This document shows, in pieces, positions 60,397-60,541 of a stretch of DNA of 64,000 bases. Origin of the DNA: Escherichia coli (GTDB lineage Bacteria > Pseudomonadota > Gammaproteobacteria > Enterobacterales > Enterobacteriaceae); the NCBI RefSeq assembly GCF_051903065.1, contig NZ_CP178438.1. The stretch is one strand, 5' to 3'. Under the pieces are notes generated by a model that saw only the letters and a list, made by a program, of their open reading frames with translations, made no database searches and was not told the DNA's origin. The translations under genes and the position numbers were made by a program. Each line of letters starts with the position of its first letter. Positions within the stretch are counted from its first letter, which is position 1.

Positions 60397-60472
60397 TGTG
60401 ACCTCTTTGATTAACTGAATGAAATCGTAGGGAGTCGATCTCATACATAATACGGCTATCAACCGTATGATT

Positions 60473-60527
60473 AATTTATGTGCATCTGCTCACTCTGTCA
60501 AGAGATACGGTTATTAGCCGTATCTCT
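60473..60527 (-). promoter_or_regulatory. Candidate sigma70 promoter and operator palindromes of the toxin-antitoxin operon
   Basis: Minus strand: TTGACA (60496-60501), 17-nt spacer, TAAATT (60473-60478); 27-bp palindrome agagatacgg-ttattag-ccgtatctct (60501-60527) abuts the -35; second palindrome tacggctatcaaccgta (60451-60467) sits downstream of the -10. Confidence 0.5.
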
Positions 60528-60541
60528 GATCTCAGACAATA

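Follow-up and report, generated by a model that had tools for sequence, protein, structure and literature searches.

The region upstream of itaR in the 64,000-nt stretch of Escherichia coli DNA analyzed here (the window) is very probably the sigma-70 promoter that drives the itaR-itaT operon, along with two 19-bp operators, P1 and P2, through which the operon would repress itself by means of the toxin-antitoxin complex. This interpretation was supported by the specificity of the motif, the identity of the genes, published reporter data, conservation and the match to a crystallized operator. The ItaRT system and its self-repression, demonstrated with a 172-bp fragment, were already known, and the promoter is otherwise of the textbook autoregulated type. 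The new elements are the base-pair assignment of two probable operators, their strong conservation across Enterobacterales, their identity with the crystallized KacAT operator core, and an upstream site that distinguishes the ItaR clade from the KacA/AtaR clade. Because the probable operators are now named to the base pair and connected with a solved structure of protein on DNA, they offer direct targets for mutational and footprinting tests.

The gene downstream of the promoter, itaR (60085-60396, minus strand), encodes an antitoxin of 103 aa. As the earlier note had proposed, it is of the RHH type: it matched PF08681 (TacA1; E = 2.8e-17), and its closest solved structures were KacA (5ZGN, E = 3.5e-11) and AtaR (6AJM/6GTS). 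Its partner, itaT (59559-60101, minus strand), overlaps itaR by 17 nt and encodes a GNAT toxin of 180 aa, recognized by Pfam GNAT domains. ItaT matched PDB 7BYY, which is ItaT(G115D) from E. coli HS (PMC7367177), with E = 1.6e-117 and about 99% identity; the engineered G115D aside, the sole natural difference was A43T, the toxin of the window otherwise being that of HS. With the allele of E. coli HS, growth arrest by the toxin and its neutralization by the antitoxin have been demonstrated (PMC6125619). The order of the two genes, with an RHH antitoxin of the TacA/DUF1778 family upstream and an overlapping GNAT acetyltransferase gene downstream, was that of a type II GNAT-RHH module (TacAT/KacAT/AtaRT/ItaRT), and by homology the gene pair is the known toxin-antitoxin module itaR-itaT. 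The NCBIfam search gave no useful name for ItaR or ItaT.

RefSeq annotates the identical 312-nt itaR coding sequence. This annotation and the Shine-Dalgarno GAGG at 60402-60405 (minus strand), which is conserved as GAGGT before the ATG in homologous loci, support the ATG at 60396 as the start of itaR. The leader between P2 and this start was 53 nt long. The itaR frame is open further upstream (60397-60462, minus strand), as far as a TTG at 60462 that lies within P2, and for this reason a longer protein is given in some annotations, such as that of E. coli IAI39 (125 aa).

The window is part of the E. coli chromosome, with cyoBCDE upstream of the module and yajR downstream. The module lies in an island of approximately 2.4 kb (58177-60540), which also carries a Sel1/TPR gene and substitutes for the 130-bp cyoE-yajR intergenic region of strains such as EDL933. 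On the cyoE side, the edge of the island was at approximately 60540, directly after the T-run of the intrinsic cyoE terminator (60542-60565, minus strand; a 10-bp stem and then the T-run, from the terminator scan) and approximately 12 bp from P1; in island-free genomes such as EDL933, the shared sequence stops at the T-run. The other edge was just before the ribosome-binding site of yajR. The island was present in about 1,368 of 5,426 complete E. coli genomes (about 25%), including BL21-AI. An itaRT homologue in Pseudocitrobacter (L001) has the identical cyoE-side junction. The Sel1/TPR-repeat protein gene of the island (58508-59503, plus strand) is convergent with itaT; its product showed weak matches to the MerG, MotX and AlgK family models and is probably secreted, with a signal-like MLTKRILFSLMLIVSPGVVA after an internal Met.

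From the cyoE terminator to the itaR start, the elements on the minus strand were, in order, the P1 palindrome, the -35 hexamer, the -10 hexamer and P2. The promoter scan placed TTGACA at 60501-60496 and TAAATT at 60478-60473 (both minus strand), separated by 17 nt, exactly the promoter that had been read from the letters (60501-60473). The two hexamers matched the sigma-70 consensus at 10 of 12 positions and were the sole promoter-like site in 59400-60800. Taken alone, they were not above chance in that interval (1 found vs. 1.8 expected from shuffles). The standard sigma-70 distance rule, applied to the position of the -10 hexamer, predicts transcription to start at an A at 60466 (minus strand), 7 nt past the last -10 base.

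P1 is a 19-bp palindrome at 60505-60523 (ATACGGCTAATAACCGTAT on the minus strand) and P2 is another at 60450-60468 (ATACGGTTGATAGCCGTAT on the minus strand); both are candidate operators, delimited by the exact motif and by conservation. The nearest end of P1 was 3 nt upstream of the -35 hexamer, with P1 covering approximately -57 to -39 when counted from the predicted start. P2 began 4 nt past the -10 hexamer and covered the predicted start (approximately -2 to +17). Read on the minus strand from 60468 to 60450, P2 is ATACGG-TTGATAG-CCGTAT; the earlier note had placed this second palindrome correctly past the -10 hexamer and had given its arms as TACGG/CCGTA, which are in fact 6 bp long (ATACGG/CCGTAT). 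When ATACGG-N7-CCGTAT was searched with at most one mismatch, exactly two matches were found in the 64-kb window, P1 and P2, both exact and 55 bp apart. The expectation from shuffles was 0.06 per 64-kb window, and none of 100 shuffles reached two.

ItaR homologues were numerous in Enterobacterales (62-91% identity). The comparison set comprised 21 further distinct loci of the ItaR clade, spread over at least 15 genera, with 12 loci from a species-representative genome collection, seven from exact-protein look-ups and two from plasmids. The genera included Pseudocitrobacter, Edaphovirga, Rahnella, Buttiauxella, Phytobacter, Trabulsiella, Chimaeribacter, Serratia, Kluyvera, Klebsiella, Dickeya, Providencia, Salmonella and Citrobacter, and one locus was a second E. 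coli paralogue. These loci had unrelated surroundings: the neighborhood of cyoE, a lambdoid prophage, plasmids, and sites beside integrases, IS66 or TraX-like genes. In each of the 21 loci, the core motif stood exactly twice in front of the antitoxin gene, the two copies being separated by 54-61 bp, and no exact core motif occurred elsewhere in the fetched DNA of the ItaR-clade loci. The same layout recurred in 21/21 loci: P1, 3-6 nt, TTGAC, approximately 17 nt, TAnnnT, 3-9 nt and P2.

Spacing and hexamers were measured in detail in 19 distinct loci, the window included, and the two plasmid loci were added separately. The gap between P1 and the -35 hexamer was 3 or 4 nt in all 19 measured loci and 6 nt in the Serratia plasmid locus (L037). 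The -35 hexamer contained TTGAC in 18 of the 19 and TTGAT in the remaining one, whereas a 17-nt spacer and a -10 hexamer of the form TAnnnT were found in 19/19. The gap from the -10 hexamer to P2 ranged from 3 to 9 nt, with a mode of 6. The two 19-mers held 1.61 and 1.62 bits per position, compared with 0.15-0.55 in their flanks (19 loci); because neutral positions have randomized, this conservation is due to selection. The 19-mer consensus, RTACGGcTRwTAGCCGTAY, is itself a full 19-bp palindrome, and T2, A3, C4, G5, G6, T8, A12, C14, C15, G16, T17 and A18 were invariant in P1. The features of a sigma-70 promoter (the hexamers, a spacer within 16-18 nt and conservation in orthologous loci) were all found, the start site being predicted. 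These comparisons support the view that the hexamers are the promoter and that the palindromes are functional elements linked with it.

The 27-bp palindrome that had been described as abutting the -35 hexamer is perfect in this allele (AGAGATACGG-CTAATAA-CCGTATCTCT, 60527-60501 in the minus reading). It extends around P1 with the extra arms AGAG/CTCT and overlaps the -35 hexamer by one base (60501). As a functional unit, it was rejected: it was broken by a change of C to G at 60504, just outside P1, in M11 and 2014C-3061, two of three further E. coli strains examined, and only the 19-mer was kept across genera. Of the four E. coli alleles in the comparison, three showed no difference in either 19-mer, with variation in the neighboring bases; the divergent strain AF10 showed T to C at 60467. 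Judged from these alignments, the conserved unit is the 19-mer and the 27-bp palindrome is allele-specific.

Across genera, the 10-nt flanks of P1 were mutually complementary above permuted pairs (68 vs. 50.3 positions, P = 0.0014), whereas the complementarity of the P2 flanks was not above permuted pairs (P = 0.78). At least four extra contiguous pairs in the P1 flanks were found in four loci, including 9 bp in Providencia. The complementarity of the P1 flanks was locus-specific (window, 60491-60537; L019, 1207-1245; L009, 2897-2935), and in some loci the left flank of P1 mirrored the -35 hexamer (Providencia, aatcaagtc...gacttgatt; Rahnella, ggtcaacac...gtgttgacc).

The DNA crystallized with the KacT-KacA2-KacA2-KacT heterohexamer is 5'-AAATGTACGGTTATTAACCGTACATGA-3' (PDB 5ZGN; Qian et al. 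2019, PMC6698736). The operator core co-crystallized with KacA4KacT2 (GTACGGTTATTAACCGTAC) is the core of the itaRT sites, and the central 19 bases of the 5ZGN DNA were identical to P1 of the window at 16 of 19 positions. In the KacAT structure, the beta-sheet of each RHH dimer enters the major groove of one arm and the minor groove is compressed over the A/T-rich center (PMC6698736); the center of the ItaR-clade sites is likewise A/T-rich. Within an arm, the bases that KacA contacts are the G of position 1 (through R12), the C:G pair of position 4 (through D10 and R8'), the G of position 5 (through R8) and the pair of position 6 (through D10') (PMC6698736). The R8A and R12A mutations of KacA abolish binding (KacAT literature). 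Arm positions 4-6, which KacA contacts, were invariant in the ItaR-clade sites. KacA R8, D10 and R12 aligned with ItaR R19, E21 and K23 (conservative changes), which lie in the predicted DNA-reading strand of ItaR, K16-N-A-R19-V-E21-L-K23, invariant in 21 homologues. At arm position 1, the KacA/AtaR clade, whose antitoxins have Arg (KacA R12), shows G, whereas the ItaR clade, with Lys (ItaR K23), shows mostly A; as a single case, this residue-base difference is suggestive.

Contact of KacA with the identical arms, base by base in the crystal, also counts against a reading in which the palindromes would work as hairpins, in RNA or DNA, rather than as protein-binding sites, with P2 forming a 5'-terminal stem-loop that stabilizes the mRNA and P1 being terminator-like for upstream transcription. 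We consider this very improbable, even though P2 would be the first hairpin of the predicted transcript and was flagged as terminator-like on the plus strand by the consensus scan. The predicted leader folded no better than shuffles (z = -1.26), and the arms conserve their sequence, without covariation. No T-run follows P1 on the coding strand, so P1 is not a terminator, and no Rfam match was found in 59400-60700. With no T-run, two copies in 64 kb and no Rfam match, the palindromes resembled neither an intrinsic terminator nor a REP-like repeat.

As operators, the itaRT sites are closest in form to those of kacAT and ataRT. kacAT shares with itaRT a PF08681 RHH antitoxin and a GNAT toxin, the R-x-D/E-x-R/K beta-strand pattern that reads the arm, and a palindrome with GTACGG/CCGTAC arms and 7 nt between them, lying approximately 4 nt past the -10 hexamer and across the start site. 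The KacAT palindrome is reported to lie across the transcription start (KacAT literature), and in kacAT the toxin is the co-repressor (PMC6698736). kacAT differs in having one site, whereas itaRT has two. In addition, the spacer of the ItaR clade is cTRwTAG, with T8 and A12 invariant, whereas that of the KacA clade is merely A/T-rich; ItaR carries an N-terminal extension of about 11 residues with respect to KacA, to which it is only distantly related (E = 3.5e-11). ataRT of E. coli O157:H7 (Jurenas et al. 2019; Yashiro et al. 2019; described in PMC8138530 and PMC10135005) has the same arms in GTACGGTGACATACCGTAC, 4 nt past the -10 hexamer in EDL933, but a single site, and its toxin targets Met-tRNAfMet, whereas that of itaRT targets Ile-tRNAIle. 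The ataRT operator of EDL933 lies between livJ and panM (L034, 296-314).

The seven loci fetched for the one-site comparison represented five distinct promoters: kacAT (99% KacA), three other KacA-clade promoters and EDL933 ataRT. Each of the five KacA/AtaR-clade promoters contained a single GTACGG-N7-CCGTAC, which was 4 nt past the -10 hexamer in L025 (kacAT-like) and in ataRT, and none of the five had a second copy upstream of the -35 hexamer. Because the single kacAT-like and ataRT sites lie at the position of P2 past the -10 hexamer, P2 is, by its location, the positional equivalent of the known kacAT/ataRT operator. P1 appears to be an addition, seen only in the ItaR clade, that sets this clade apart from the KacA/AtaR clade. 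The window agreed with operators of the KacA/AtaR type in the RTACGG-arm palindrome with 7-nt separation (16/19 against the 5ZGN DNA), in the site just past the -10 hexamer and over the predicted start (P2), and in the conserved base-contacting residues of the beta-strand. It departed from them in the number of operators per promoter, which was two rather than one in the window and in 21/21 ItaR-clade loci.

A precedent for a two-site promoter in the wider family, likened by the number of sites alone, is tacAT of Salmonella enterica, for which EMSA shows two separate TacA-TacT sites in the promoter (VanDrisse et al. 2017, PMC5449658). TacA is a more distant relative of ItaR (E = 0.05). Acetylation of TacA alters its binding (PMC5449658), whereas ItaT does not acetylate ItaR (PMC6125619).

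Binding of ItaR to these sites is itself deduced from sequence, which leaves some room for the idea that a host factor with no relation to ItaR occupies them, or that they resemble the KacAT operator by coincidence. Such an explanation is hardly credible, given that the sites accompany itaR homologues in at least 15 genera, in prophages and on plasmids, and that the 64-kb window has no further copy of the motif.

Repression of the operon by its own products has been measured in vivo. Wilcox et al. 2018 placed the 172-bp upstream fragment before galK and observed approximately 40-fold promoter activity (PMC6125619). Co-expression of ItaR and ItaT, with the toxin active or inactive, cut the activity of the fragment almost to background (PMC6125619), and ItaR alone had no effect on the 172-bp fragment in vivo (PMC6125619). 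The fragment would correspond to approximately 60579-60407 and would include P1, the promoter and P2. Because ItaR alone failed to repress in vivo, the repressor is likely the toxin-antitoxin complex rather than the free antitoxin. This requirement for the toxin parallels AtaRT: free AtaR is a weak binder, its binding becomes tight within the hexamer (PMC8138530), and repression is exerted by the T-A4-T complex (PMC8138530, PMC10135005). Excess toxin de-represses KacAT and AtaRT (AtaRT: PMC8138530, PMC10135005).

The proposal that twin operators with a shared half-site serve autorepression is thus supported by the published repression of the upstream fragment by ItaR and ItaT. It gained further weight from the conservation of the palindromes and hexamers in every ItaR-clade locus and from the identity of the half-site with the arm of the KacA4KacT2 operator. 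The text of PMC6125619 mentions no operator, palindrome, inverted repeat, EMSA or footprint, and the literature searched yielded no paper with a binding assay for these sites or a mapping of the sites or the start.

By analogy with KacAT and AtaRT, from which both binding and stoichiometry are taken, one ItaT-ItaR2-ItaR2-ItaT heterohexamer would bind each palindrome. Each arm would take one RHH dimer, which would read C-G-G through R19, E21 and K23. P2 would be the ancestral site common with kacAT and ataRT, and its occupancy would block open-complex formation at the start. P1 would be the extra site of the ItaR clade, at which a 27-bp KacAT-like footprint would reach the upstream edge of the -35 hexamer and the alpha-subunit region. 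With both sites occupied, RNA polymerase would be excluded, and the operon would be off when the toxin-antitoxin complex is present. The end of P1, 3 nt short of the -35 hexamer, counts against this scheme, as do the distant relationship between ItaR and KacA and the differences between the operators of their clades at position 1 and in the central spacer. Simple phasing of P1 and P2 on the same face of the helix was not supported, the distance between their centers varying from 54 to 61 bp (mode 57 bp, approximately 5.4 helical turns). Because this spacing gives no hint of same-face cooperation, a separate contribution of P1, beyond added occupancy, is something that we infer.

The most serious rival to the two-operator model is that only P2 represses and that P1 binds the same complex for another purpose, perhaps as a protein roadblock or insulator against read-through from genes upstream or as a reservoir, and with little influence on the itaRT promoter. 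The characterized relatives kacAT and ataRT do manage with a single start-site operator, P1 lies outside the -35 hexamer and, unlike P2, it often has extra locus-specific symmetric flanks. However, the offset of P1 from the -35 hexamer is fixed at 3-4 nt in 19 loci (6 nt in L037), whatever lies upstream, which indicates a link with RNA polymerase binding, and a KacAT-like 27-bp footprint on P1 would reach the -35 hexamer. Repression by P2 alone is therefore improbable in our estimation, and the two-operator model was retained.

Distant GNAT-RHH antitoxins keep one operator core, which raises the question of cross-regulation in strains with two modules. Because the operator cores of itaRT and ataRT are identical, such cross-regulation is physically possible. 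We suggest, as a tentative and somewhat doubtful idea, that non-cognate ItaRT and AtaRT complexes might bind each other's promoters and so couple the expression of two toxins with different tRNA targets, and that the ItaR clade might tune or insulate this cross-talk through P1, its position-1 A and its conserved spacer. A chimeric itaRT and ataRT query matched at 2,993 places, which were spread over 2,599 genomes and never exceeded two in any one genome. By this count, both modules were present in about 394 complete E. coli genomes, compared with roughly 410 expected under independence. Strain ECNB21-M121 carries both, and its cyoE-yajR island region was a 100% match to the window (58100-60700).

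In many ItaR-clade loci, P2 and the antitoxin start are separated by a leader of 134-211 nt, compared with 53 nt in the window. Loci with a long leader were L002 (2790-3000), L003 (2793-3000), L013 (1303-1500), L015 (1319-1500), L017 (1298-1500), L019 (1294-1500) and L021 (1331-1500), as well as L010, L023 and L036. The long leader holds a conserved block, GCGTAAGAAACACGC, and then a mini-ORF of 15-17 codons preceded by a Shine-Dalgarno sequence. The mini-ORF has a conserved C-terminal R-F/V-R-C pattern (e.g., MRNFDNALNLNRFRCFL and MKHESKSVEFHRVRCLL) and is followed by TAAGGAGG, about 25-30 nt before the Shine-Dalgarno sequence of the antitoxin. An Rfam search with the long leaders of the homologues gave no match. 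The long-leader block may be a leader peptide or an RNA element of the family.

Among phage records, itaR was found in just two small unannotated Escherichia records. In Klebsiella pneumoniae (L013 and L014), an itaRT homologue belongs to a lambdoid prophage, where it adjoins a homologue of DNA polymerase III theta and is flanked by Ea22-like genes on one side and ninB/ninE on the other. In Citrobacter freundii (L036), an itaRT homologue lies on a plasmid with a phage baseplate gene. These settings suggest that ItaRT homologues are carried by phages.
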